From positions 496,001-560,000 of the forward strand of contig AP026155.1 in the NCBI GenBank assembly GCA_030295235.1: 64,000 nucleotides of DNA, given 5' to 3'. Shown one piece after another: positions 5,706 to 63,754 of the stretch. Position 1 is the first letter of the stretch; each line of letters opens with the position of its first letter. The notes below the pieces were generated by a model. That model saw only the letters and a list, made by a program, of their open reading frames with translations. It was not told the DNA's origin and made no database searches. The position numbers and the translations under genes are program-made. The stretch is from Fistulifera solaris. Its lineage: Eukaryota.

Positions 5706-6827
5706 TTAAGGTCCATCTGCCGTCTTCCAATCTAAAATCTCTACCTTCATATCATCCAATATCCGTTTCACCCGTTGAACAATTGCCCGTCCCCATAGTT
5801 TGTAGCCTTCAACATTCGGATGTATAGCGTCTTGAAATAGCGTCACATTTCGATGCAAAACATCGTTTGGTTCCATAAAGAGTGCCGTGGCGTCGAAAAA
5901 CTCCACGTGGGGAGTCGCTTCGGCATAGCAGTGCAATAATTCATTCACCTGTCGGGCCAGTGTTTGTCGTCGCGTCACTGGCAAGATCGAATTAATGACC
6001 ACACGGGTGGGTTGATGCCTATGTGCCAAGATAGCTTGCACGATTTCCATTATCCCCGACAGGACCGCCTCGGGGGTACAATCTCTCTTTTGAATGTCGT
6101 AAACTCCAACAGTGAGCCAGACAACAGGTGCCACGATCCCGTCACCTTTCAATTCATCGTTTTGTATTCGATACAACAATTGACTGTAACCATCTTCACC
6201 TACTCCGAGCGGCACGCCCTTGACCGAAGTTTCACCCCTGGCACCAAAGCGTTCCGCAAAGACATCTTTGATGGGATGATAACGGCCACGCCCGTAAGAG
6301 TCCGGCATCGGAACACGTGAGAAATACGTCCCTTGCCACCGCTCGGTCAATGAATCACCCACGAGCAGTACATCGAGGGCGTCCATGACATGTTCGAAGG
6401 GTTGCAGGAGAAACGAATTTCGTTGTCGTGTTCGATCCCACCATTCCTTCTTTTCATCATATTCGCTGGGCATAGCCGGATCTGGACAAAAGCATTCGCT
6501 ATTTTCTAAACAACGATGTTCGCTATCTTTCATTCGTTTCAATAGCGTATGTCGAAGGAAATAGTCGGCATCCGACACGAGCTCTTTACAATCCAATTCC
6601 AGGAACGTCGAGTCGACTAGATACAAATCGTCGATATCATCAACATTGTCTTGTATATTCAGTCGAGAACCGATAATCACGAGAGCCAGCACGCTTCCAG
6701 CAAGTAGGAAGAGCAAAATTTTTATTTTTCGGCTCCTTTTTCGTGTCACGGGCACTAACAGAGCCGACACTTCGACATCCTCATCCTCGCTTTCTGTGTC
6801 ACTACACTCAATTTCGAGTCTTTGCAT
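5706..6827 (-). CDS. Type II membrane SGNH hydrolase
   Basis: Intact 373-aa ORF; N-terminal TM (ILLFLLAGSVLALVIIG), Cys-rich stem, LLVGDSLTERW, QDAIH. Confidence 0.88.
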   Translation of the reverse strand: MQRLEIECSDTESEDEDVEVSALLVPVTRKRSRKIKILLFLLAGSVLALVIIGSRLNIQDNVDDIDDLYLVDSTFLELDCKELVSDADYFLRHTLLKRMKDSEHRCLENSECFCPDPAMPSEYDEKKEWWDRTRQRNSFLLQPFEHVMDALDVLLVGDSLTERWQGTYFSRVPMPDSYGRGRYHPIKDVFAERFGARGETSVKGVPLGVGEDGYSQLLYRIQNDELKGDGIVAPVVWLTVGVYDIQKRDCTPEAVLSGIMEIVQAILAHRHQPTRVVINSILPVTRRQTLARQVNELLHCYAEATPHVEFFDATALFMEPNDVLHRNVTLFQDAIHPNVEGYKLWGRAIVQRVKRILDDMKVEILDWKTADGP

Positions 6828-7375: not shown

Positions 7376-8450
7376 CTATAAACCTTCTTCTTCTAAAATG
7401 TGTAAGACGCGATGAACAATTGCTTCTCCCCATACCTTGTAACCTTGCGCATTCAAATTGACCGTATCAGCAAACAAATCCGGGTTTGGACGCGACACAT
7501 TCCCCCTCCATGATACTCAGCAAAGGCGTCGCATCAAAGAAATCAACATTCGGAATTTGTTGCGCGTAGCAATGCAATCGTTCGTTGACTTGTGTGACTC
7601 GCTCATTCAATGGTACTAACGAATTGATTACAATCCGTGTCGGCTGATCGTGTCTTTTCCGAATCTCTTGCAGTTGTTGGATGACAGACAATACGCCAGC
7701 CACTACACCATCGGCGGTGCAGTCGTAATACTGCATGTCGTTGATTCCGATGTTGATCCAGAGGATGGGAACTTTGAATGTAACTGGCAATTCACCATTT
7801 TGAAGACGATACAATAATTGACTGAAACCGTCTTGCGCAATGCCCAGAGCAAGGCCACTAACAACCCGTTCGTGATCGCTCGTGACGTTGGTAGCCTGAA
7901 AATACTGTTGATACAAGTCATGAATGTCACCCCAAGCCTTATGACCCGTCACTTTAGAGCGAAAATGAGAATTGTTGGTCCCCAGCCAGTGTTCGACTAA
8001 CGAATCTCCGAACATGAGAACATCCCAGTGTTTATTGTCCGAATCCTGAATCAATTTGAGGTTGCGCTGGAAGACATTGTTCCATTCCGGATCCCATTGA
8101 TTCCCTGTCGCAACCTTCGGAGACTCACATTTGCAATGTCGACGATCTCTGTCACCCGTGACACATCTCCGAGGTTGATGATTCGCCATATTTCCGACAA
8201 CGTGTTGAAAATACTTGTCATCCGCACCGACTGCGTCACAGTCAATCGAAGTAAACGTTGAAACGACCGGTGCTGTCACTACAGGTTCGTCCAGTGCCTC
8301 GGCAGACTCGGGTCGTAATGTCATGGCCATGATAATGATCATGAGACTCAACAAGGCGGCGATGAGAAACAAGGAAGCCCGGCGAATGTGCGGGCGATGG
8401 AAAACAGCAAAGCTGTAATGGCCGTCGCGAGTGACGCTTTCGACATTCAT
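7376..8450 (-). CDS. Type II membrane SGNH hydrolase paralogue (one frameshift at the G-run near 7502-7506)
   Basis: TM helix, LMFGDSLVEHW, GIAQD, INIGIND; after the frameshift it reads NVSRPNPDLFADTVNLNAQGYKVWGEAIVHRV..EGL* (TAG at 7378-7376). Confidence 0.82.
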
Positions 8451-8753
8451 TTCTTATAAATTGTGGATTGATTGGTTTAACAATTGTTTTCTTGAGATAT
8501 GGAAAGATAAACAGTATCTAAAACACCCCATCATTTGCCCAGCAACGACAAACCTGAGGAAAAAGCCGACGGTCATCGTTTCCTCCCGCAATTTTCGTGA
8601 GAATGACTGTTTCCTTACTGTGATCCACCGTGTACACTGGATTTGAAGTTTGAGGCGTGAACGCACAAGCTGTGAGTCACGAGACAATGTCTCACCGTTC
8701 ATCGTTCATTCAAAGGAGTTTGGTTCCTACTTTGTAGTGTACGCGCGCGATCA

Positions 8754-9264
8754 TGTCAAAGAGCGAGGTCGAGGTTGAGTGTCGGACTGAAAGATTTATT
8801 CAGTCATGAGTTGACACGTCATCGGATGTCGGAATGGTTCGAAATGACCGCCTAGTTTATTGGGAAAGCATTCTACTCGTGAAAGGAGTCTCGGAAGTGT
8901 TTCGAACTATATGTTTGGGGATTTGGGATCACGGAAGAATCCAGTATGCAATTATGGACGATGACTGTTGCTAGTTGCTAAGGAACATGCAATAATGGAG
9001 AATCTGGTGGATTGGCAGAAAGGGCTATTTTATCCTAAAGTTGTTATTGGAGAAATGGACTTGGCAAGATCGGATCATGATCAGATCAAGATCAGATCGG
9101 AGACCAGTGAAAAGAGGAAAGCGAAAGTAATCGTAGGAAATCGTCATAATTCTGTAAGCGAGTGTTTGGAGCAAAAGTTCGTTGTTTCAATAGTCTTTTG
9201 TCTGGGGTGTGTGGAGTCCCCCGATAGCCGAGAGCAGTTACAGACCGCGGTAGAAATTTCAACA
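8754..9264 (+). repeat. 5' LTR (511 bp, TGTCA...CAACA)
   Basis: Direct repeat of 13621-14133; by-eye comparison found 2 substitutions and 2 homopolymer indels. Confidence 0.97.
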
Positions 9265-9313
9265 CGCTTATAAGCGTGGCGTTGAGAAAAAAAAGTTTAC
9301 GAGACAAGACAAG

Positions 9314-12300
9314 ATGACCGACGAGGGAGAGAAGATGAGGGCTTTGACCTTCTACCCGTTGGACGACAAGGTCGCTGAGAAGTCGTACGATGACTGGAAG
9401 TTCAAGACGATGTCGTTGATCACGAAGAGAGGTTGGACGAGTGTGTTCGATGACCTGAAGGCCGAGATCCCCACGAAGGAAGTTGCGATGGGAGCGACGG
9501 CGACGGCGAAGGACAAGGAGTTGTATCGAAGCAATCTCGAGATCATCGATTTGTTGGTGATTGCGTGCGAAGGCGTTCCTTTGGGTCTTGTCAAGAGAGC
9601 GGATGGCGATGCGAGAGACGCATTCAAGCTTTTGGATGCTAAGTACGCCCGGAACAGCGAGGAAGATTTGGCGGAAGTGTTGGCGGAGTTCGGACGGTGC
9701 AAGTTGGCGTCGAAGGAAGATGACCCTGACAAGTTCTTCCTGGAGTGCGATCGGTTGCAGAACCGTTTGAAGACAATCGGATCGCAGTATGTGAAGCCAA
9801 GTTTCGTTTTGAAGGCCCACTACTTGGCCAACCTTCCTGACGAGTATTCGGATGTGATCACGAAGTTGAGCGGAAAGATCAACGAGACCTCGATTGAAGA
9901 CCTCGAGAAGGAGATCCGGAACAAGTGGAAGCGCTGTTTCAAGCCCAAGAACGATGAAGAAAACGAAGAAAAAGAAAAAAGACAAAAAAGAAAATAAAAA
10001 TTTAGCATTAAACGTCGAAAAGGGCAAGGGTGGTTTTAAGAAGAAGTTCAAGGAAAGTGCCGCAACTGCGGCAAACAAGAACACAAGGCAGTGGAGTGCA
10101 AGAGCGACAAGAAGAAAGTCTGCTTCAACTGTGGCAAGGAAGGCCATTTCTCTCGCGAGTGTCCGGACAAGTCGAACGGCAAGGATCCGAAGCCGGAGAA
10201 CAAGGACCTGAACATGTTCGTCGGCATGTGCTATGAGGTCGGCAAAGGCGGCGAAGAGTTCTGTGGCGTCGTTCATCAAGTTGGCGCGGTCGAAGTGTCG
10301 AGAGTCAAAGACAAGGAAAGGTTCCTTCTCGACAGTGGAGCGACGTGCCATGTTGTTGTGGATGAAACGATTTTGAGCGATGTTATTTCGACGAAGGAGT
10401 ATTTGGTCGTCGGTGACGGAAAGGAAGTCCAAGTACACAAGAAGGGTACACTCATGCTCGCTACTGTGGGTGGTACTATGAAGTTGAGTGAAGTCAAGGT
10501 GGCGCCGACGTTCGCGAAGAATATTATCAGTACTGGGGCTTTAGTGAAGCAAGGGTGCAAGATTGAGATAACCAGTTGTGCGATGAAGATCACTGACCCC
10601 TCCGGAAAGAGTGTGTTGACGGTACCTCAGTCACACTATGGGTTATACTACTTGAAGGCTAGCGTTGTTAAGTCAGATGTCCATGCGGTGGAGACCAAAG
10701 TGAAGATGGACATAAATGCTGCGCACGATATGTACGGACACGCAAGCGACATTCCTTTGAAGAGTCTCATGAAACAGTTGGGAATCGAGTTAACTGGAAC
10801 CAAGGAGACATGCGAGGCGTGCGCGTATGCGAAGGCGAAAGCAAAGGCGGTGTGCAAGTCGACGGCTATCAAAGCAACGGCGAAAGGAGAACGATTCTAC
10901 GTGGACACGAGTGGGCCCTACAAGAAATCGTTGGGACAGAGTTGCTACTGGATCTTATTGGTGGATGATTACACGCGCAAAGCTTGGAGTTACTTCGTTA
11001 CAAAGAAGTCGATGATTGGCAAAGTCATGACGCTATTTCTTGATCGCTTGAAAGGAGATCCGAACGTAATCGTAAAGTACATTCGGTGTGATAATGCAGG
11101 CGAGAACGGAACATTCAAGGAGATCTGTGAGGCGAGGGGCATAACTATGGAGTTTACTGCCCCGCATACTCCGCAGATGAACGGTGTTGTTGAGAGGAAG
11201 TTCACGACAATTCGCGATAAGGCCCTTGCGATGATGTTGGCGGCGAAGTTGTCGGATGAGCATCAAGGAAAGTTATGGCCCGAGGCTGTTCACACGGCAA
11301 CGAAGTTGGATAACGCTGTCCCGAATCGGAATGTGGAATCGAGCCCTGATTATGCGTGGTACGGCGAGCATCCTAAGATACTGAAACACTTGGTTCAGTG
11401 GGGGCGGATCGGATATGTGACTTTACGAAACAAACAGCCCAAGTTGGAGAAGAAGTCAGTGAAATGCGTGATGGTTGGGTACGCGGATTCGCATGCGGGC
11501 GATACGTATCGTGTTTACAAGCCGGATGAAAATATTGTCATTCTCTCACGTGACGTCACTTGGGCAGACTGGCATGGATCGAGTGCTTCAGTTGCATCAG
11601 AGTTAAGGATGTTTGCAGCTGGAATGGAAGTCGACTTAAAGGATGACCAAATTGGGGAGGAAGTCGCAATCAAACCGGTGATGCTCGAAGATGTCGATGC
11701 TGGAGCAGGGAGGAAAGTTGTGGAAGAGAAAGCGGCAGAGGAAGTTGTCGAAGTGGCTGTGGAAGGTCCTACGGAAGCTCTGGTACCCGAGGCTACGGCG
11801 GACAATACTCCAGCACCGAATCAACGGAAAGAGACGCAATCGACGATGAAAAGACTGAATAGAGAAATGGCAAGGCTGGACACTTCATATAATCCAACAA
11901 TGAACGCCAAAGGAGAGATCAATACAATCGATGTGTCGGAAGGTTATTTTCACTACGTTTTGAATACGGAGTTGGCGTCGGATCCTGGTGCGCCGAAAAC
12001 TTACAAGGAAGCCTTGGTTGGTCCGGATGCAGACAAGTGGAAAGAGGCAATGAAGAAGGAGATTGAAAATTTCATTAAAAGAGATGCTTGGAAGATGGTT
12101 CCTAGAAAGCAGATGAAGGAGAGAGGACGGAAGCCTGTTACGCCGAAGTGGATTTTCAAAAAGAAGAAAGAGGCAACGGGAATTCGTTTCAAAGCTCGGA
12201 CTTGTGCGCGGGGGTTTGTTCAAATCCCTGGTGTGGACTTCACTCTTTCGCATTCACCTGTTGCATCGGACATGTCGGTTCGAATGGTTTTGGCAGTGGT

Positions 12301-13645
12301 ACTTTACATGTGGAAGAAGATGTGGGTCACTGAAGTTATTGACGTTGAGGCTGCGTTTCTAGAAGCGAAGTTGAGAGAGGAGGTGTATCTTGAATGGCCC
12401 TTTGGGCTATATGAGTTTGGGTACATCACGCATGAAGAGTTAATTGACTACATCATCCTATTGGAGAGGGCGATGTACGGTTTGGTCCAGAGTCCACGAG
12501 AGTACTTCATGCTCTACTGTGCCCAATTGAGGAAGCTGGGGCTTATTCAGAGTGCTGCGGATCCGTGTGTCTGGTTTAAAGTGGTGAACGGCGAGACAGT
12601 ACTAATCATTGTGGTGTATGTCGATGATTGTATCCTTGCCGGTCCCCAAGAAGAAATCAATTGGTTCAAGAGAGAGATCAAGAAGCGCTTCAACATTACC
12701 GAAATGGGCCCGATTCAGAAACACTTGGGAGTTTGGTACGAGAGAAAATCGGATGAAGCAGGAGAGTTCTACGAAGTGCGAATGGATGAGTACAAAGACG
12801 AGATAGTAAAGGATTGGAAGGAGCTGATTGGACCGTTGAAAGCTGAGAAGACACCGGGCTATCCAGGGGAATCGCTTGTGAAGAACGAAGGCGATCCAGT
12901 TAATAAGGATCAGTATCGGAAGTTTCTCGGACGTCTCATGTGGCTGGTGCGGAAAGTAGCTCCGGAATGTGGAAATGCAGTCAGGGAGCTTGCAATGTTT
13001 ATGGATTCGCCAGGCGAAGAACATTGGAGAGCGATGAAGAGATTGGTTGGCTATCTCGAGAGTACGGACGTTCATCTGAAGTTGCGCGAGCCTGTTAATT
13101 TGAAGGTTTACGCATGGGTGGATTCAAACTTTGCTACGAACAAGGAGTCAGCGGAAAAGTGTTACTGGCTACTTTGTTACCATTGGAGGTTGTTTGTGTG
13201 GCTTTTCAAGCAAGTTGCAACCGGCGGTGACACTGTCAAGTGGGAGGCGAATATTATGCGGCATCTACGTGTGCGACGGACATCAAGTTTTTGCAGATGT
13301 TATTCGAAGAATTGTTTCCGAAGGTGAAGATTCGACCGGCTACCTTGTTTGAAGATAACACGGGCGCAATCTTCTTGATGGAAAAACCAAGTTGTGGGGA
13401 ATAGGACGAAACACATTGATATTCGAATGCATTTTATAAGGGAGATGATGGCTGCAACGGAGAAGGAAGAAGCCAGGCTGGTTGTGAAGTTTATTCGATC
13501 GGAAAGGAATATTGCAGATCTGGAAACCAAGAATGTGACAGAGAAAATCCATGATCTTTTGGTGCCTGTTGTTAGAGAAGGACTCATGACGCAGTTAATC
13601 TTAGCAGCCGACAGGGAGGATGTCAAAGAGCGAGGTCGAGGTTGA
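9314..13645 (+). CDS. Copia gag-pol polyprotein (frameshifts near 9990, 13150, 13245 and 13385)
   Basis: Zn knuckles CRNCGKQEHKAVEC and CFNCGKEGHFSREC; protease FLLDSGATCH; integrase H..GH..C..C, VDTSGP, RCDNAGE, PQMNGVVER; RT YVDD; RNase H DSNFA, EDNTGA, RTKHIDIR, NIAD. Confidence 0.95.
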
Positions 13646-14133
13646 GTGTCGGACTGAAAGATTTATTCAGTCATGAGTTGACACGTCATCGGATGTCGGA
13701 ATGGTTCGAAATGACCGCCCTAGTTTATTGGGAAAGCATTCTACTCGTGAAAGGAGTCTCGGAAGTGTTTCGAACTATATGTTTGGGGATTTGGGATCAC
13801 GGAAGAATCCAGTATGCAATTATGGACGATGACTGTTGCTAGTTGCTAAGGAACATGCAATAATGGAGAATCTGGTGGATTGGCAGAAAGGGCTATTTTA
13901 TCCTAAAGTTGTTATTGGAGAAATGGACTTGGCAAGATCGGATCATGATCAGATCAAGATCAGATCGGAGACCAGTGAAAAAGAGGAAAGCGAAAGTAAT
14001 CGTAGGAAATCGTCATAATTCTGTAAACGAGTGTTTGGAGCAAAAGTTCGTTGTTTCAATAGTCTTTCGTCTGGGGTGTGTGGAGTCCCCCGATAGCCGA
14101 GAGCAGTTACAGACCGCGGTAGAAATTTCAACA
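13621..14133 (+). repeat. 3' LTR (513 bp)
   Basis: Direct repeat of 8754-9264, immediately preceded by the polypurine tract. Confidence 0.97.
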
Positions 14134-14150
14134 AAAGTTGTGGAAGAGAA

Positions 14151-14502
14151 AACTCTTCATGCGTGATGTACCCAAACTCATATAGCCCAAAGGGCCATTC
14201 AAGATACACCTCCTCTCTCAACTTCGGCTTCTAGAAACGCAGCCTCAACGTCAATAACTTCAGTGACCCACATCTTCTTCCACATGTAAAGTACCACTGC
14301 CAAAACCATTCGAACCGACATGTCCGATGCAACAGGTGAATGCGAAGAGTGAAGTCCACACCAGGGATTTGAACAAACCCCCAGCGCACAAGTCCGAGCT
14401 TTGAAACGAATTCCCGTTGCCTCTTTCTTCTTTTGAAAATCCACTTCGGCGTAACAGGCTTCCGTCCTCTCTCCTTCATCTGCTTTCTAGGAACCATCTT
14501 CC
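14151..14502 (-). mobile_element. Inverted duplicate of the element's own RT segment (about 12090-12441)
   Basis: Reverse complement matches 12090-12441 nearly exactly; minus-strand ORFs read MVPRKQMKERGRKPVTPKWIFK and REEVYLEWPFGLYEFGYITHEE. Confidence 0.95.
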
Positions 14503-14510
14503 GTATAAGG

Positions 14511-14640
14511 CCAGGGAGGATGTCAGATTGAGGGTCTGGACGTCAATCAGAGTGGCTTATATATCATGGATCGAGGTAGAAATACGACGTGATTGGGATG
14601 GCTCTGTGGTTCGATTCCACAGTACGTTAGTATTTTAACA
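14511..14640 (+). mobile_element. PPT (CCAGGGAGGA) plus a different 120-bp LTR (14521-14640, TGTCA...TAACA)
   Basis: Same PPT and terminal motifs as the main LTR but unrelated interior; internal CTTATATAT; followed by CGATCA, identical to the 6 bp before 8754. Confidence 0.75.
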
Positions 14641-15281
14641 CGATCACACGCTGCGATCAAAATAATTGTTTAAACGAGCTAACAAAGTAGAATGAAGACA
14701 ATGCGAAGCTTATTATTTGTCTCAATCCTGCTTACAATCTCAAGTGAACTCCCCTTATTTTCGATTTTCTGCGAGCCTAAGAGCTGCATGGAATTACTCG
14801 TTCGGCGGAGTAATGTGATCCATAATCCATAGCTTCGGAGAAATTTGTCCGTCCGGCTTCTCTTCGTTCGGGGCAATTCTTGTGATGGTAGAGGCAATGC
14901 TTTCGAGTCCTGTCCTGGAAGCCGGAGTCTTAAAGAGTCGCGTCCGGTTACGAACCACGATCCTATGCCGAATTCGGGAAACAGAGTCTCCTGAATGACC
15001 TCGCGGTCCCCGCAAACTTGGGTATCATTGCTTGCAAAAACGTTGAGTCACACGGAACAAGTGATCCTTTCGCTATTGTTAAGTATACACCAGCCAGCGT
15101 GGTCTCACCGAATCCGGTCAAATGAAGAAGAATATGAAGCCGTTCTAATGTCTGAACCGGGTTCATTCAAATCTTCCTCCTCAAATGCAGATCAGGAGAG
15201 GTCATAAAACGGATTCAGCTCCGAAGTTGCTGTCTTTCTGCACCTCCAACTATTAGTTTTCTCTTTTCCATCAAAATATCC

Positions 15282-16676
15282 ATGAGACGATTTCCTCCCA
15301 ACTTTTTGTGGGGTACCGCCACGGCCGCGTACCAGATTGAAGGTGCCGCTCGGATTGATGGCCGCGGACCGAGCATTTGGGATGCGTTTTCGCAAATTCC
15401 CGGTAAAGTACACGGCGGACACACTGGAGATGTTGCTTGCGATCATTATCGTCGCTTCAAAGAAGATGTTGCTCTTCTCAAGACAACGGGTGTCAAGTGC
15501 TACCGATTTTCTATTGCCTGGCCTCGTATTTTGCCCCAAGGACGAGGGGATGTCAACGAGAAGGGTGTAGCGTTTTACAACGAACTTATTGATTGTCTCA
15601 TTGAGAATGACATTGAACCGTGGGTGACGATTTATCACTGGGACTTGCCGCTCGCATTGCAAATGGAAATGGATGGGCTATTGAATCCTGACATTGCCAA
15701 ATGTTTTGCCGATTATGCTCGTGTTTGTTTCGATCGCTTTGGAGATCGTGTTCGTCACTGGATCACCTTGAACGAACCGTGGTGCTGTGCCTTGTTGGGA
15801 CACGGCAATGGATGTTTCGCGCCGGGTCGTGTGTCGAACACCGAACCGTATGTCGCCGCTCACAATCTGTTACGAGCCCACGCGTACATGGTGGACGTTT
15901 ACCGTCGCGAGTTTCAAGAGCGTCAGAAGGGAGTGATCGGCATCACCAATAACTGCAACTGGTACGAGCCCCTCACTCATTCGGCGGAAGATCGCGAGGC
16001 GGCCAACCGTGCTTTGGAGTTTTCGTTGGGATGGTTTGCAGATCCTGTCTACTTTGGTGACTATCCGCAAAGTATGCGCGATCGTCTGGGTTCCAAGTTG
16101 CCCGAGTTTAGTGCCGACGACCGCAAGCTCTTGAGAAATTCCGCTGATTTCTTTGGCCTCAATCATTACAGCACGAATTTGGCCGCTGAGCCGGCCATTG
16201 CCACCGCCGGAGACACCGCTCGTCGGGACCGAGGCATTATCGGTGATCACAATGTCGACTTGTCGGATCATCCTTCATGGGAGAAGACAGATATGGGATG
16301 GAGCATCGTGCCGTGGGGAGTCCGCAATTTGCTGCAGTGGATCGACCGACGATACGAGCATCCGCCCATTTACATTACTGAAAATGGGTGCGCCATGCCT
16401 GGCGAGGATGACCGCGAGGTCGCCTTGAATGATACAGGCCGTTTGGACTATTTGGAAGGATACCTCGGTGCTTGCCACGAGGCCATTGATAGCGGCGTGG
16501 ATTTGCGAGGATACATGTGCTGGAGCATGATGGATAATTTCGAATGGGAGTACGGGAACAGTAAACGTTTTGGCTTGACGTGGATTGACTTCAAAACGGG
16601 TGAACGCTTCCCGAAGGCATCGTTTCGTTGGTACTCGACTGTGTGCACCAGCAATGCCATCCCCGCAATCGCCTAA
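15282..16676 (+). CDS. GH1 beta-glucosidase copy 2, intact
   Basis: 464-aa intronless ORF with WGTATAAYQIEG, TLNEPW, ITENG and WSMMDNFEW; no signal peptide. Confidence 0.95.
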   Translation: MRRFPPNFLWGTATAAYQIEGAARIDGRGPSIWDAFSQIPGKVHGGHTGDVACDHYRRFKEDVALLKTTGVKCYRFSIAWPRILPQGRGDVNEKGVAFYNELIDCLIENDIEPWVTIYHWDLPLALQMEMDGLLNPDIAKCFADYARVCFDRFGDRVRHWITLNEPWCCALLGHGNGCFAPGRVSNTEPYVAAHNLLRAHAYMVDVYRREFQERQKGVIGITNNCNWYEPLTHSAEDREAANRALEFSLGWFADPVYFGDYPQSMRDRLGSKLPEFSADDRKLLRNSADFFGLNHYSTNLAAEPAIATAGDTARRDRGIIGDHNVDLSDHPSWEKTDMGWSIVPWGVRNLLQWIDRRYEHPPIYITENGCAMPGEDDREVALNDTGRLDYLEGYLGACHEAIDSGVDLRGYMCWSMMDNFEWEYGNSKRFGLTWIDFKTGERFPKASFRWYSTVCTSNAIPAIA

Positions 16677-16700
16677 AATGCCGAGTGCTCGCAGGATAAC

Positions 16701-16787
16701 TTGGAAACGGCGTTACTATTCTACTTCGTCGTGAACGCTGCGTAGAATCTTGTACTGGAGGCAAAGTATTGACGTCCTTTCCTAGTA
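16701..16787 (-). repeat. Diverged copy of the ~87-bp palindromic dispersed repeat
   Basis: GGAAACGGCGTTA..TTCT..TCGTCGT..ACGCT.CGTAGAATCTTGTAC.GGAGGCA..TT.ACGTCCTTTCCT aligns with 63588-63673. Confidence 0.7.
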
Positions 16788-17095
16788 TGAAAGTGCTTTG
16801 TCAGAGAGTATAACAAAATAAGAGTTTAAATTAAAGAATGAACAACTGAAGAGTACTCGGCTCGTATGTTCTTCCTATTTATTTCGTACGGAGTAGTTTT
16901 CAAGTCAGGCTCGTGACTCACACTTTCGTTCAATCGTGAGCGCGTTCGACACGCCACGCGACGACTTTCTTCTGCGTTCCGAAGACAAGAACAGAACTCT
17001 CTCACATACCTCCTGTCGCTGCTGTCATTAATGTTCAGAGCATTTAAATCCTTTTCATTCCTTTATTCATTCTCTCTCAACAAACAAAAGAAATT

Positions 17096-32942: not shown

Positions 32943-33444
32943 ATGCCGGAACCGAAACTCCCACCCAACGAATCGACCTTCGTGCAGGATGTCATGTCCA
33001 TGTTTTCCATGACGCCCGCCGATTGGGGTTGTCTTTGTCAGCTCTTTTTGACAATCTTTCGACGCTGCTCGGAGCACTCTTTGCCATTCAAGGATTGGCC
33101 AATTTGGGAGATATCAGTGCCGATTTAAGTATGATCAACTATTATATCTTTGGGAAGATTGTGCCCGGAGTCGGTGTCACGTTGCTCGCCGGAAACATTT
33201 ACTATGCGTGGCAAGCGTCGCGTCTCACCAATCGGTGGGGACGACAGTACACGGCACAGCCGTATGGATTGAATACACCGGCGGCCTTTTCCTTTGTCTT
33301 TAACATTATGTGTAAGTGCTGACAAGACGCGTGAGAGTGTAGAGTGTCGATGGGGTCCTCTCTCTCTCTCTCTCTCTCTCTTTCAACACGCATATCACAT
33401 CTCGCTCTCTCTCTCTCTCTCTCTCTCAACACACATCTCTCTCA

Positions 33445-33489
<45 letters not shown>

Positions 33490-35365
33490 ACACGCAGACC
33501 CCGTCTATTTCAGTTTGGTGTTTACGGAAGGCTCCGAAGTTGCCTTCAAGACAGCCTACGATGTCGCACTCGCCGCCAACTTTATTACTGGTTTGATTTC
33601 CACCGTCTTGGCCTTTTTGGTCCCCTCATTTTGCAATACGTCCCGCCCGCTGCCCTTCTCGTACCGATTGCCGGCATTGGTATTGCCTTTTTGGGCATGG
33701 AACAAGTCACCAACAGTATTGCTGCCCCGCTCGTGGGATATCCCGCCATTTTGTTTGCCTTTTTGGGGTGGTATTCTGGAGTCCGACTCGGATACGGCAA
33801 TTACCGTTGTCCGGAAGCACTCCAAGTCATTCTGGTTGGTGTCATTATGGGCTGGTCCACGGGTCTCAACAAGAAATCGACCGTGGAAGATGCGATGGAT
33901 CTCGTCAAGTGGTATGGACCGGATTGGTCCGCCGATGACATGTTTGCCAATTTTGATCTCATTAAAGATTATTTGGGAATTGTCATCCCCATTGGTATTT
34001 CCGCAACCGCCACCACTTTGATGTGTCTCGTATCGGCTAAGAATGCGGGAGATCCGGTACGTCCATGTTAAGAGCACGTTGGTATGTGTGTCACATTCGA
34101 TCCTCTTAACCCCTTGCCTCAAACAGTTCCCCGTTCGTGAATCCATGATTGCGGATGGTATTGGAACCATGATTGCGTCCTTTTTGGTTCTCCCTTTGGC
34201 ACGGTCATTTGTAAGTCCAAGAGTGGTGGAAGCGACGATATGATTATTTTTGTTTGGATATAGATGACCTCAATTTTTTCAAAACTTGCACCAATTGCAG
34301 ACATTGGACATCCCGCTCACAAGCGCAGTGGTGCCAAAACCGGATACAGTATGGCCAATGGTCTCATTTACTTCATCCTGTCGTGGTTTGGAATTCTGGC
34401 TTTTATTCAGAGCATTGTCAATGTAGCGACCATTGGTCCGATTGTTTTATTTGTCGGTACGTCGATATATTGTGAGGCGGCGATTGGATTCGGTCGATCG
34501 ATCGATCGATTTCTCACTCAAAGATTTTGCCTTTTTAGGTCTCGCCATCAACGAGGAATGTTTGAACTTTATTCCGTCTCGTCAGTATGCTGCCTACGTG
34601 TAAGTAACGAATCCCGCTCTCTCTCTTTCTCTATAATTCTCTAGGGACGGCATCTAACACAGTTTTTCGTTCGACAGCGTTGGTTTGTTTCCCTCCATCT
34701 TTGATTGGGTCGTGAATGTGGCGAACCGCAGTCCTCTTGGTAATGACGCCGATGGCAATACCAATTTCCCCGGTGGAGATGGCTGGTTTGGTATCTTGGC
34801 TTGGAAACGCGGTGCCTTGTTGGTTTCCTTTGTGTGGGTTGCCATTTTGGTACGTGAAATGCGTGCTCTCCGTTACACGATTGTTCTTCTTCTCGCTCAT
34901 TTGTTGGTTTTTTAGGTCAGTGTGATTGATCGTCAATGGAACAAGGCGACCTTTTGGAGTTTGTTGGCGGCCGGTTTTGCTCTGTTTGGCATCATTCATA
35001 TGCCCGAAGCTGGTTTGGACAAGTTGAGCGAACCCTTTTGGGAACAGTGTCCCGCGGGCGGTTCCTGCTGGGAACATGGCGAACAGTGGATGTACTTTGT
35101 GGCGTATCTCATGTTTGCAGGTATTTTTGTGCTCATTGAATTGGCTCGTCGATTCGGTCTTGATGAACAATTGTTGCCCGGCTTGGAAGATCCAACGTCC
35201 GACGAGTTCAAGGACTGGTTCCGTGATGCCGAAAAGACGACGCACACTGTCACGAAGACGTGGCGTGATGAATTGGAAGAGAAACGTTTGGATCCAACGG
35301 TGCAGTCGAGCGAGAAGGTGATGGGATCGGACGGCGACGAATCGCCGGTCGAAGAAGACGCTTAG
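32943..35365 (+). CDS. NCS2/AzgA-like nucleobase/ureide permease, multi-exon (some frameshifts)
   Basis: LFFDNLSTLLG, PGVGVTLLAGNIYYAWQASRL, TAQPYGLNTP, AALLVPIAGI, AGDP.PVRESMIADGIGT, IGHPAHKRSGAKTGYS; many TM segments. Confidence 0.82.
33357..33486. repeat. Compound (CT)n microsatellite in a permease intron
   Basis: Three (CT)n blocks separated by TCAACAC(G/A)CA(T)-type spacers. Confidence 0.95.
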
Positions 35366-35673
35366 AAGCGCCCCCCTTTTTTGTGTTTGTTGCTTTTTTT
35401 TGAAAGAATGTTTTGATCTTCGAGGGACGTTTGGAGTCTCTCTAACATTTTAGTTGAACGGTTTATATATAATAGTTGGATCTATTCTATTCTATTTTGT
35501 TAATGCGCATCGCGTGAGATTTTAATTACTGTAGTTTTTTACTACGGAGTAGTTAGAATTACTACTGTCACTATTCCAGCGCGCAATATCACTAAGGTTT
35601 ACCTGGTACGCACATGTACGTGAAAGGAATAGAAGGGTAGAACGTTTGTCTTTGATACGTGGTAACCTTACTG

Positions 35674-35760
35674 TACAGGGAAGGACGTTAAAATTCTGCC
35701 TCCCAGTACAAGATTCTACGTTGCGTCTACGACGAGGCAGAATTTGAACGCCGTTCCCAG
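35674..35760 (+). repeat. ~87-bp imperfect palindrome, MITE-like dispersed repeat
   Basis: Arms GGAAGGACGTTAAAATTCTGCCTC and GAGGCAGAATTTGAACGCCGTTCC; reverse complement of 63588-63673. Confidence 0.85.
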
Positions 35761-36438
35761 TTCACGTAGTAGGCATGTACACTACGGTAGCCCAGCGGCG
35801 ATGATGGATGAATGCGGTAACCGAAACAAAAGAATGATTGAAAGAGCTATGAATGAATTATGAAAGCTATTTGCCGCTATTCAACTCGACAAACGACGGC
35901 CAACTCATTATGCGACAATACACTGCATGAGCAATCCGTCCTGATCGGAAAGAAAGCGAAAAATATTAGTTTCGCTCCCTTTGTCTCTCTCTCTCTCCAG
36001 GCTCGAGTCGGTTTCAAGTCATTCGCCTTCTAGTCGAATGTTACCCTTACACCAAGATTTCGTACTAATCTACAAAAAAGAGAAAAAACGAATTTGCCGT
36101 ATAAATTGAGAATGATGGTAGAGACGGTGGCCTTGCCATCGCGATGCAGGCAAATTTTTACCGGGGGCCGATTCCAGCCAAGCAAAAAAAAAACAGGATA
36201 CGATGATTCAGCTGAGTGAAGTGTCCGTTGGTGTTGTTTTTTTGTGAAAGACGCAAAATCGTCCGCATGACCAAACTTACAACGAAACCAGTTTGACCGT
36301 TTTACTTTCCGTCACCGATGATGTGATAAACCGTTTTGAATGGGGAGAGCGGCAGATGAGGAAATGGAGAAGCTTGTATCCAGAAAGGTTCACAAGTAGC
36401 TCCTTTTTGGGCTTGGTATCAATCGCGTGTTGCGAATG

Positions 36439-63587: not shown

Positions 63588-63673
63588 CTGGAAACGCCGC
63601 TAAAATTCTCCCTCGTCGTAGACGCTACGTAGAATCTTGTACGGGAGGCAGAATTTTAACGTCCTTTCCTGTA
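63588..63673 (-). repeat. ~87-bp palindromic dispersed repeat (reverse copy of 35674-35760)
   Basis: CTGGAAACGCCGCTAAAATTCTCCCTCGTCGTAGACGCTACGTAGAATCTTGTACGGGAGGCAGAATTTTAACGTCCTTTCCTGTA. Confidence 0.85.
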
Positions 63674-63754
63674 AGAAGTGAGAACCCGCATAGTTCTGCA
63701 ATCAAAATAATTATCAACAAGAATAATTGTAGCCAACATTCTATAATTAGACTA

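Follow-up and report, generated by a model that had tools for sequence, protein, structure and literature searches.

How does a single retrotransposon insertion come to carry the LTRs of two different families? The two LTRs of an element are copies of one another after normal reverse transcription, so two unrelated LTRs inside one target-site duplication record an abnormal replication cycle. Such an arrangement lies in the 64,000-nucleotide stretch of DNA analysed here (the window), where a full-length copia element continues into a tail of rearranged pieces and ends in the LTR of another family. We think it probable, at roughly 60%, that positions 8754-14640 of this single locus were inserted in one integrase event, as a composite cDNA with ends from two families. 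The insertion is intergenic, with a GDSL-lipase-like gene and a GH1 glycosidase gene as its neighbours, and has no consequence for host genes other than its position in their divergent promoter region.

Anatomy of the insertion and its flanking repeat

Sequence comparison confirmed to the base the part-by-part anatomy that the initial annotation had proposed, including the identical CGATCA hexamers on either side (Table 1). The order is CGATCA, a full copia element (element A, of family A), 18 bp of its interior, 352 bp of its RT region inverted, 8–9 bases, a PPT, a 120-bp LTR assigned to family B (LTR-B), and CGATCA again. The whole insert between the flanking repeats is 8754-14640, of which a 507-bp tail lies beyond element A.

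Table 1. Features of the insertion and its flanks, with positions counted from the first letter of the window.
Feature	Position	Strand	Remark
Left flanking repeat CGATCA	8748..8753	.	alternatively CGATC plus an A matching the last PPT base
5' LTR of family A	8754..9264	+	511 bp, TGTCA..CAACA
Perfect 12-nt palindrome CGCTTATAAGCG	9265..9276	+	directly 3' of the 5' LTR
gag-pol reading frame of element A	9314..13645	+	
Interior copy of PPT 9-mer CAGGGAGGA, candidate central PPT	11706..11714	+	integrase-RT linker; encodes conserved AGR island
Source of the 18-nt direct piece	11714..11731	+	starts on last base of interior PPT
Source of the inverted piece	12090..12441	+	start of RVT_2 domain
3' PPT of element A, CAGGGAGGA	13612..13620	+	within end of pol frame (..ADREDVK..)
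3' LTR of family A	13621..14133	+	513 bp
Tail piece 1, direct copy of 11714-11731	14134..14151	+	18/18 identical
Tail piece 2, inverted copy of 12090-12441	14151..14502	-	352 nt
8–9 bases	14503..14511	+	no source in window; 9 if the PPT is the 9-mer shared with A, 8 in the initial annotation
PPT CAGGGAGGA before LTR-B	14512..14520	+	same 9-mer as 13612-13620
LTR of family B	14521..14640	+	120 bp, TGTCA..TAACA; unrelated to LTR-A except tips
T-arm-like stretch CTGTGGTTCGATTCCACAG inside LTR-B	14603-14621		
Right flanking repeat CGATCA	14641..14646	.	sequence match to left copy

Element A has the organisation of a Ty1/copia element. Its LTRs form a near-identical pair with TG..CA tips (four differences, namely two transitions and two homopolymer-length indels), its integrase lies upstream of an RVT_2-type RT, and a PPT directly precedes the 3' LTR, with the same core preceding the LTR in two relatives (L005 and L006). 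The domain order within gag-pol is zinc knuckle, Pol beta-barrel, integrase, SH3-like and RVT_2 (Pfam matches in the 10091-13327 frame: rve, residues 271-361; SH3_retrovirus, 431-491; RVT_2, 678-909). As assembled, gag-pol contains four internal stops and is shifted in frame over two blocks (about 9968-10055 and 13145-13390), and the RT half of pol is 96% identical to an intact metagenome protein (P0001). The nearest named relative is a protein of Fistulifera solaris (67%), which places element A among the diatom copia-type elements. Immediately downstream of the 5' LTR, a conserved 12-nt palindrome stands in place of a TGG-type primer binding site, and the palindrome CGCTTTAAAGCG is kept at the same place in L005 and L006; no tRNA gene for comparison with the primer site was found in the window.

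Element A has no 5-bp duplication of its own, and the initial annotation was right that its immediate flanks do not match (GATCA or CGATCA on the left, AAAGT or AAAGTT on the right). The only repeat encloses A and the tail together, and the chance of a six-base match at two fixed positions is about 1 in 4096 by hand calculation. One reason to read the insert as a composite cDNA is that identical hexamers abut the outer tips of LTR-A and LTR-B and none surround A alone. With the 507-base tail, foreign end included, inside one target-site duplication, the structure has the appearance of an abnormal product of reverse transcription that was inserted once.

The length of this duplication can be read in two ways. 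It had been remarked earlier that 6 bp departs from the 5 bp usual for copia; the six-base match stands, but the departure is not secure, given that base 8753 is also the last PPT base. A 5-bp duplication of CGATC plus one retained, PPT-derived A would give the identical sequence and the identical empty site, and the extra A of the left junction is the same as that at the start of the tail, both being the last PPT base. The target-site duplication cited for copia is 5 bp (PMC1950507), and that given for a diatom CoDi element is ACAAG, also 5 bp (PMC2806351). The mismatch with these lengths was counted against the composite-cDNA reading, which at 5 bp requires an extra base to be kept at the left end. 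Also counted against it was a further CGATCA at 14655-14660, 14 nt downstream, which makes the local sequence slightly repetitive.

Neither reads nor contigs of the source organism were found to span a junction or an empty allele, which was likewise counted against the composite-cDNA reading. Comparison with four runs, whose contigs derive from organisms other than the source, gave a single weak joint from 8612 to 14831 (27 letters on one side), a hint of an empty site in a relative.

The tail and a candidate central PPT

The sequence of the tail pieces derived from A supports their origin from this same element copy, since they carry no substitutions. The inverted piece has 0 substitutions over 352 nt relative to its source, with four one-base indels, and is free of the variants at 12130-12178 that other family-A copies carry in run X1. 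Judged by reading frame, all four indels fall in the tail copy, a one-sidedness not expected from simple shared origin, and this was counted against the composite-cDNA reading.

At the first junction (J1, 14133/14134) the exact LTR-A terminus is joined, a DNA end that exists only in cDNA. The sequence joined to it starts at 11714, the last base of the interior PPT copy, and within the element the motif AGGGAGGA is confined to 11707-11714, 13613-13620 and 14513-14520. The AGR island encoded by the interior copy is kept in 6 of 6 and in 25 of 37 relatives, within a linker that is otherwise unalignable, and the same linker carries (A/G)GGGAGGAA in two relatives, L001 and L002. Pol thus contains a second copy of the 3' PPT that is conserved among relatives, which is how a conserved central PPT should look. 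We treat the motif as a candidate central PPT and putative priming site, the only, indirect sign of priming being the junction that starts there. Ty1 has a central priming site, PPT2 (PMC11372161), and HIV-1 uses both 3' and central PPTs (PMC4393142). J1 would then link the end of an LTR to the place where a plus strand primed at such a site is expected to begin, and this suggests that the join arose during reverse transcription. A random breakpoint would fall on 11714 or 11715 at about 2 of the 4356 interior positions, a post hoc hand calculation. That the coincidence was spotted after the fact was itself counted against the composite-cDNA reading.

The remaining junctions are less distinctive. 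J1 can fold as CAAC-AAAA-GTTG, and J2, where the pieces overlap by 1 nt, as GAAGAG-AAAA-CTCTTC. J2 and J3 have no recognisable landmark and at most 1 nt of microhomology, so that the data do not specify the switch mechanism, a further point against the composite-cDNA reading. The bases at 14503-14511 may come from the very end of the family-B interior, where they would read ..YKAREDV.. in frame, or they may be filler.

On the composite-cDNA reading, a complete family-A cDNA would have been joined at its right LTR terminus (...AACA) to a 507-bp aberrant product. This product would begin with 18 nt from the 5' end of the plus strand that the central PPT primes, change to the opposite strand of the same element for 352 nt of inverted RT sequence, and close with the PPT and entire LTR of family B, a second family of copia type with short LTRs. 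LTR-A would leave its left tip free (TGTCA...) and LTR-B its right tip, and the integrase complex would take these two ends for one concerted integration, duplicating CGATCA, or CGATC with a retained PPT-derived A. The joins presumably arose when reverse transcriptase jumped from one template end to another, or when cDNA ends were joined together, and nucleic acids of A and B probably shared one particle (co-packaging). The initial annotation had proposed such a single integration, with a left end from family A and a right end from family B; the position of J1 at the edge of the interior PPT, the lack of substitutions in the tail pieces and the standing of LTR-B as an independent repeat all favour the proposal, though they fall short of proof.

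The same junctions bear on a model in which the integrase complex held the left end of A and, as its right end, a separate short cDNA fragment of B (PPT plus LTR), and inserted the two into a single target site so that a chromosomal break was left between them, host break repair then closing the gap from the right end of A to the B fragment with filler templated from A cDNA. This model predicts the same outer junctions and duplication. Templated insertions made during break repair are short direct or inverted copies of nearby sequence with little microhomology, and the tail resembles them in its short direct and inverted copies, its 0–1 nt of microhomology and its hairpin-capable junctions. 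However, such inserts are usually shorter than 352 nt, so the inverted piece is long for this pathway, and an 18-nt piece starting exactly at the central PPT better fits a reverse-transcription intermediate, even if A cDNA could carry the discontinuity into the nucleus. To our knowledge, moreover, concerted integration that draws on two separate donors has been seen only in vitro. We consider this model unlikely, although fragments of the 3' LTR region, such as it requires, are the commonest Ty1 cDNA captured at yeast breaks in the data described (PMC11372161).

LTR-B and the outer junctions

Within the window LTR-B occurs once, and BLAST finds no similarity between it and LTR-A. In a wetland metagenome (run X2), contigs diverge from our sequence exactly at 14521 (two contigs) and at 14640 (four contigs) into unlike flanks, with high depth over the unit, the matches coming from a related organism in the metagenome and not from the source genome. 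Such exact departures into unlike flanks imply that LTR-B is a discrete dispersed repeat. No second copy was found outside run X2, no full-length family-B element was recovered by pattern scans, by peptide search or in 79 fetched loci, and neither family yielded a length for its target-site duplication; these negatives, too, were counted against the composite-cDNA reading. The PPT and the TGTCA that begins LTR-B together make 14 nt that are the same as 13612-13625, and the right tip of LTR-B (...TTTTAACA) matches that of LTR-A at 7 of 8 bases. Because the PPT core and TGT(C/T)A tips are common to A, B, L005 and L006, one integrase could plausibly handle both A and B ends.

These boundaries also bear on a possible assembly artefact, in which a chimeric long read or an error of the consensus produced the tail or one of its junctions and the true locus is a simpler insertion. 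No read support for the junctions was found, which would fit such an artefact. The copies differ mainly by one-base indels (two between the LTRs, four in the inverted piece), and paired one-base shifts occur in the pol frame, as in an unpolished long-read assembly; inverted duplications, too, are a known type of chimera. Base-level indel errors cannot make three new junctions, however, and an artefact would neither begin at the central PPT nor set a PPT and a complete foreign LTR, whose ends are true repeat boundaries elsewhere, against a copy of the left-flank hexamer. An assembly error of this kind therefore seems to us quite unlikely.

The outer junctions bear on a further model, independent of integrase, in which full A, the A pieces and the PPT-LTR of B were ligated into a double-strand break by end joining, with the 6-bp repeat as fill-in of a staggered break. 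cDNA captured in this way usually has truncated ends and no target-site duplication, whereas both outer junctions here are intact LTR tips without loss, enclosed by a clean direct repeat, which is not what end joining usually leaves. End-joining capture of retrotransposon cDNA and replication intermediates has been described at yeast breaks, with the 3' LTR region as a hotspot (PMC11372161), and the 6-bp repeat does differ from the 5 bp cited for copia; we nevertheless judge capture very unlikely, and the chromosomal junctions were probably made by integrase. Least probable is a succession of independent B and A insertions at or near the site, later rearranged or deleted, with CGATCA as chance or B's own target-site duplication: nested insertions and LTR-mediated recombinants lacking a target-site duplication are common, diatoms included (PMC2806351), and CGATCA occurs twice locally on the right side, but such a history requires either that a deletion stopped precisely at LTR-A's outer tip or that a 1/4096 match arose by chance, has no left LTR-B remnant in the window, and leaves unexplained the exact LTR-A terminus and central-PPT edge at J1 and the zero substitutions of the inverted piece.

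Single integration of a composite cDNA thus remains our preferred reading, and if true, it would mean cross-family use of LTR ends by an integrase, replication intermediates joined at natural strand termini, and use of a central PPT in a diatom copia lineage, each otherwise seen mostly in yeast or in vitro. It would also offer one route by which a short-LTR family exchanges sequence with an autonomous partner. We know of no biochemical work on diatom retrotransposons. A more specific version, which we advance only tentatively, is that the locus is the fossil of a two-family integrase complex, its composite having been assembled within one particle as reverse transcriptase jumped from end to end among replication intermediates, the 5' end of a plus strand begun at the central PPT being one such end. 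Were that so, family B, with its 120-bp LTR and the same PPT and tips, would be a non-autonomous passenger dependent on family A for packaging and integration, and diatom copia elements would, like Ty1 and lentiviruses, use a conserved central PPT in their replication.

Comparison with known retrotransposon systems

Capture of Ty1 cDNA at breaks reportedly proceeds by end joining without a target-site duplication, whereas the intact LTR tips and direct repeat at our locus point to integrase. The likeness is that in the Ty1 events described, too, pieces of cDNA, especially of the 3' LTR region, and incomplete intermediates were joined in the genome (Yu et al. 2024, PMC11372161). Like Ty1 with its PPT2 and lentiviruses with their cPPT, element A has a second copy of its 3' PPT in the integrase-RT region, conserved in relatives; in the diatom element the sole sign of priming is a rearrangement junction that starts at the motif. 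As a diatom copia-type element, A resembles the CoDi copia-like elements, but the CoDi recombinants described are post-integration exchanges without a target-site duplication, in contrast to the composite here, which a duplication encloses (Maumus et al. 2009, PMC2806351). Recombination between different RNAs during reverse transcription has been reported for retrotransposition bursts, there among members of one family (PMC5668417), whereas here two families are joined and two different LTRs are left.

Complex copia insertions that are flanked by a target-site duplication and ascribed to template switching are already in print (Sabot and Schulman 2007, PMC1950507). Like the cases described there, ours is a larger-than-unit copia insertion with an internal LTR and one target-site duplication around the whole complex, and those cases were explained by abnormal switching among templates packaged together, followed by one integration. 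In them both cores are complete and share a middle LTR, all three LTRs belong to one family, the outer two being highly similar, and the duplication is 5 bp. At our locus, by contrast, the outer LTRs come from two unrelated families that share only their tips, the second 'core' consists of 379 nt of fragments (18 + 352 + 9), one of them inverted, and the flanking repeat is 6 bp. The insertion, a single locus, thereby adds a variant to the known complex LTR insertions.

Anatomy of the insertion

Direct reading and self-comparison of the window bore out the whole layout claimed in the initial annotation, namely that two copies of CGATCA enclose a full copia element (element A, with its LTR, LTR-A), 18 bp from its own interior, an inverted reverse transcriptase (RT) piece, a polypurine tract (PPT) and the LTR of a second family, B (LTR-B). 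We refer to the 507 bp between element A and the right CGATCA as the tail. The two LTR-A copies are two transitions and two homopolymer-length indels apart in self-comparison. LTR-B is single-copy within the window, and by BLAST it is not similar to LTR-A; likeness between the two is confined to their tips (TGTCA on the left; TTTCAACA versus TTTTAACA on the right). Element A taken alone has no matching flanks.

Coordinates of the features of the insertion
Feature	Position	Basis or relation
Left flank repeat, CGATCA	8748-8753	direct reading
LTR-A, 511 bp, TGTCA..CAACA	8754-9264	self-comparison
Internal region of element A	9265-13620	terminates in polypurine tract
3' PPT, CAGGGAGGA	13612-13620	adjoins second LTR-A
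Second LTR-A copy, 513 bp	13621-14133	self-comparison
Tail piece 1, 18 nt	14134-14151	identical to 11714-11731, direct orientation
Tail piece 2, 352 nt	14151-14502	reverse complement of 12090-12441
8-9 nt without source within the window	14503-14511	
Second, tail-side PPT, CAGGGAGGA	14512-14520	same as 13612-13620
LTR-B, 120 bp, TGTCA..TAACA	14521-14640	
Right flank repeat, CGATCA	14641-14646	

The left end of the whole insertion has one A between CGATC and TGTCA, equal to the last base of the PPT. Because base 8753 is thus both the next target base and the last PPT base, duplication of 6 bp and duplication of 5 bp with retention of a PPT-derived A yield identical sequences and predict an identical empty site, which on the single-insertion reading would be ...GCGCGCGATCACACGC... 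with nothing between. The claimed departure from the 5 bp usual for copia is therefore not secure: the repeat is 6 bp long, and CGATC plus one PPT-derived A is equally compatible. PMC1950507 gives 5 bp as characteristic of copia, and PMC2806351 gives the duplication ACAAG for a diatom CoDi element; a limited search of further diatom literature returned no target-site duplication (TSD) lengths.

Element A carries a frame (9314-13645) with domains in copia order: zinc knuckle, Pol beta-barrel, integrase (rve), retroviral SH3-like domain and RVT_2 reverse transcriptase. Its RT half is 96% identical to P0001, an intact metagenome protein of 1437 residues, and its best named relative is a protein of the diatom Fistulifera solaris (67%), which makes a diatom host very probable. 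Two blocks of gag-pol (about 9968-10055 and 13145-13390) are frame-shifted by paired one-base indels, and there are four internal stops. Two transitions aside, the frame shifts and all differences among repeated parts are one-base indels, a pattern that fits either long-read consensus errors or real mutations (decay). Contigs of relatives from sequencing runs X1 and X2 show gap differences at or near both shifted blocks.

In element A, as in its relatives, the pol frame does not end before the LTR but reads across the 3' PPT and into it (..A[AD]DREDVK..; 13590-13645 in the window and the C-termini of the relatives' proteins P0001-P0009). Since the 3' PPT is embedded in ..REDV.., a conserved C-terminal part of pol, it is under coding as well as cis-acting constraint. 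At the other end of the internal region, a perfect 12-nt palindrome, CGCTTATAAGCG, directly follows the 5' LTR (9265-9276); it reads CGCTTTAAAGCG in two relatives' loci, L005 (about 1289-1300) and L006 (about 957-968), with a central AT-to-TA change under which it stays palindromic. LTR-A is not directly followed by a TGG-type tRNA primer site; the 12-mer may serve for dimer linkage or as a primer site of an unusual kind.

The insertion occupies the intergenic region between two divergent genes, one GDSL-lipase-like (7467-8450, minus strand) and one for a GH1 glycosidase (15282-16676, plus strand), within a cluster of duplicated hydrolase genes: GH1 paralogues at 956-2292 and 15282-16646 (80% DNA identity) and neighbouring GDSL-lipase-like genes at 5706-6827 and 7467-8450. 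The window holds no paralogous empty site, the match between the GH1 copies being limited to the gene body. Elsewhere, it contains three copies of a repeat of ~90 bp (16698-16795, 35672-35764 and 63588-63680; 80-88% alike, one inverted, with internal inverted arms), possibly a miniature transposon, and a CT-rich microsatellite with interspersed CAACAC units (33358-33506).

A candidate central PPT and the tail junctions

The 8-mer AGGGAGGA occurs only three times in the element: within the 3' PPT, before LTR-B and at 11707-11714. Going by domain positions, the interior copy falls in the linker that separates the integrase SH3-like domain from the RT, and it encodes Ala-Gly-Arg there. When six relatives (53-68% identical to P0001) were aligned, AGR formed an invariant island in an otherwise unalignable linker, and it is kept in 25 of the 37 relatives of at least 1000 residues; the same linker reads AGGGAGGAAGGA and GGGGAGGAA in the DNA of two more distant relatives (L001 and L002, respectively). 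The interior motif, a candidate central PPT, bears the signature expected of one, comparable to PPT2, the site of central priming named for Ty1 in PMC11372161, and to the HIV-1 central PPT described in PMC4393142.

The 18-nt tail piece starts at 11714, the final base of this motif, so that the first tail junction (J1, 14133/14134) joins the exact LTR-A terminus, an end existing only in complete cDNA, to the putative start of a centrally primed plus strand. A chance breakpoint on 11714 or 11715 would have a probability of about 2 in 4356, by a hand calculation made post hoc. The inverted piece has no substitutions in 352 nt relative to the interior of element A and lacks the variants of another family-A copy in run X1 (at 12130, 12139, 12160, 12175 and 12178), which makes this element, or an identical one, its source. 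The four indels of the piece, all on the tail side as judged by reading frame, may stem from errors of assembly or copying or from later mutation.

The second junction (J2, 14151) joins 11731 to the complement of 12441 with 1 nt of overlap, forming GAAGAG-AAAA-CTCTTC, and J1 forms CAAC-AAAA-GTTG. Only 6 of 200 shuffles of the 51-nt J1/J2 stretch fold as well or better; no specific priming scheme was derivable from these hairpins. Sequence comparison found no landmark at the third junction (J3, 14502/14503). Read in frame with the PPT, bases 14503-14511 give ..YKAREDV.., loosely like the pol ends of relatives, and, judging by three residues, could represent the end of family B's internal region.

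LTR-B as an independent repeat

Four sequencing runs (X1, X2, X4 and X5) were compared out of the five sharing words with the region. Family A is present in X1 at 99-100% (8 of 10 contigs at 99% or above), with no contig over the flanks or tail, a missing cover that is uninformative; X4 gave a few short family-A pieces and X5 nothing. X2, a wetland metagenome, contains family-A-like sequence at 90-99% and has high summed depth across 14316-14883. Its contigs diverge exactly at 14521 (two contigs) and 14640 (four contigs), with mutually discordant flanks; in a related organism, then, LTR-B is dispersed as a discrete repeat bounded by exactly these two positions. A further X2 contig runs from 8612 straight into 14831; as one side has 27 letters, the likeness threshold was 90 and the flanks belong to gene families with paralogues, this hints only weakly at a relative's empty site.

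A full family-B element was not found in searches of metagenome, viral or genome contigs. Exact scans with LTR-B words gave no hits (20-mer, metagenome contigs; 21-mer, prokaryote genome contigs), a 44-residue peptide read through LTR-B had no match, and BLAST of LTR-A, LTR-B and element A against 79 metagenome loci gave distant coding matches only. These loci are mostly 26-46% identical, the five closest (38-66%) being short contigs without flanks; genome contigs yielded eight distant, contaminant loci, and viral contigs no relatives with flanks from which to take a TSD length. L005 (a 66% relative) and L006 (46-58%) each span the pol end and one LTR into gag, with the same PPT core as A, TGT(C/T)A starts, ATTTCAACA ends and the conserved post-LTR palindrome. 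Their LTRs are about 530-545 bp long, making the 120-bp LTR-B unusually short for the lineage. Within LTR-B, 14603-14621 (CTGTGGTTCGATTCCACAG) forms a perfect tRNA T-arm-like or box-B-like stem-loop in sense orientation; a tRNA origin was rejected after negative ARAGORN and Rfam searches.

Proposed origin and comparison with known insertions

We favour, with a probability of roughly 0.6, a single integrase event that inserted a composite cDNA with ends from two families. In this scheme a complete family-A cDNA would have been united, outside the chromosome, with a short aberrant DNA. The aberrant DNA would have begun as plus strand at the central PPT and, 18 nt on, crossed to the same element's opposite strand for 352 nt, before a second switch, onto minus-strand DNA of family B just upstream of the family-B PPT, took it to the end of LTR-B. 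Reverse transcriptases can jump between templates, leaving one at its 5' end and resuming at the 3' end of the next; J1, linking two natural plus-strand termini, may reflect such a jump or the joining of cDNA ends. The composite would have presented the left tip of LTR-A and the right tip of LTR-B (7 of 8 terminal bases as in LTR-A) to one integrase reaction, which would have duplicated the target. Nucleic acids of A and B probably shared a particle, as their meeting needs, and family B, with its short LTR and the same PPT and tips as A, is plausibly a passenger of family A.

Other routes to such a molecule were set aside. Autointegration as the source of J1 gives circles without free LTR ends and leaves the B end unexplained, and was not retained as the main explanation; had a donor locus been transcribed by read-through, two identical chimeric LTRs would have resulted. 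Reading LTR-B in reverse, as a 5' LTR with primer site, was also rejected: the 14 nt before it are identical to the PPT and LTR start of element A.

Integration of two separate donors followed by host repair of the gap would leave the same outer junctions and account for the filler-like pieces, but it requires a long templated insert, and we consider it unlikely. Slightly less probable is misassembly, which leaves unexplained why a whole foreign LTR, genuine at both ends, should abut a second copy of the 6-mer from the left flank. That end joining captures multiple cDNA fragments at a break is documented in yeast (PMC11372161); intact tips flanked by a direct repeat are not what such capture predicts, and we rate it lower again. 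Successive insertions with rearrangement, the least probable, call for either a coincidence of 1/4096 or a deletion that stops precisely at the tip of LTR-A, and leave the central-PPT junction unaccounted for.

The composite-cDNA reading rests on one locus, and a non-exhaustive literature search found no case of a chimeric element combining two unlike LTRs within a single TSD. Closest among described classes are the TSD-flanked complex copia insertions, for which Sabot and Schulman (PMC1950507) describe similar outer LTRs and two complete cores. Neither feature holds here; in its proposed mechanism, abnormal switching ahead of a single integration, the locus resembles that class without being a strict member of it.
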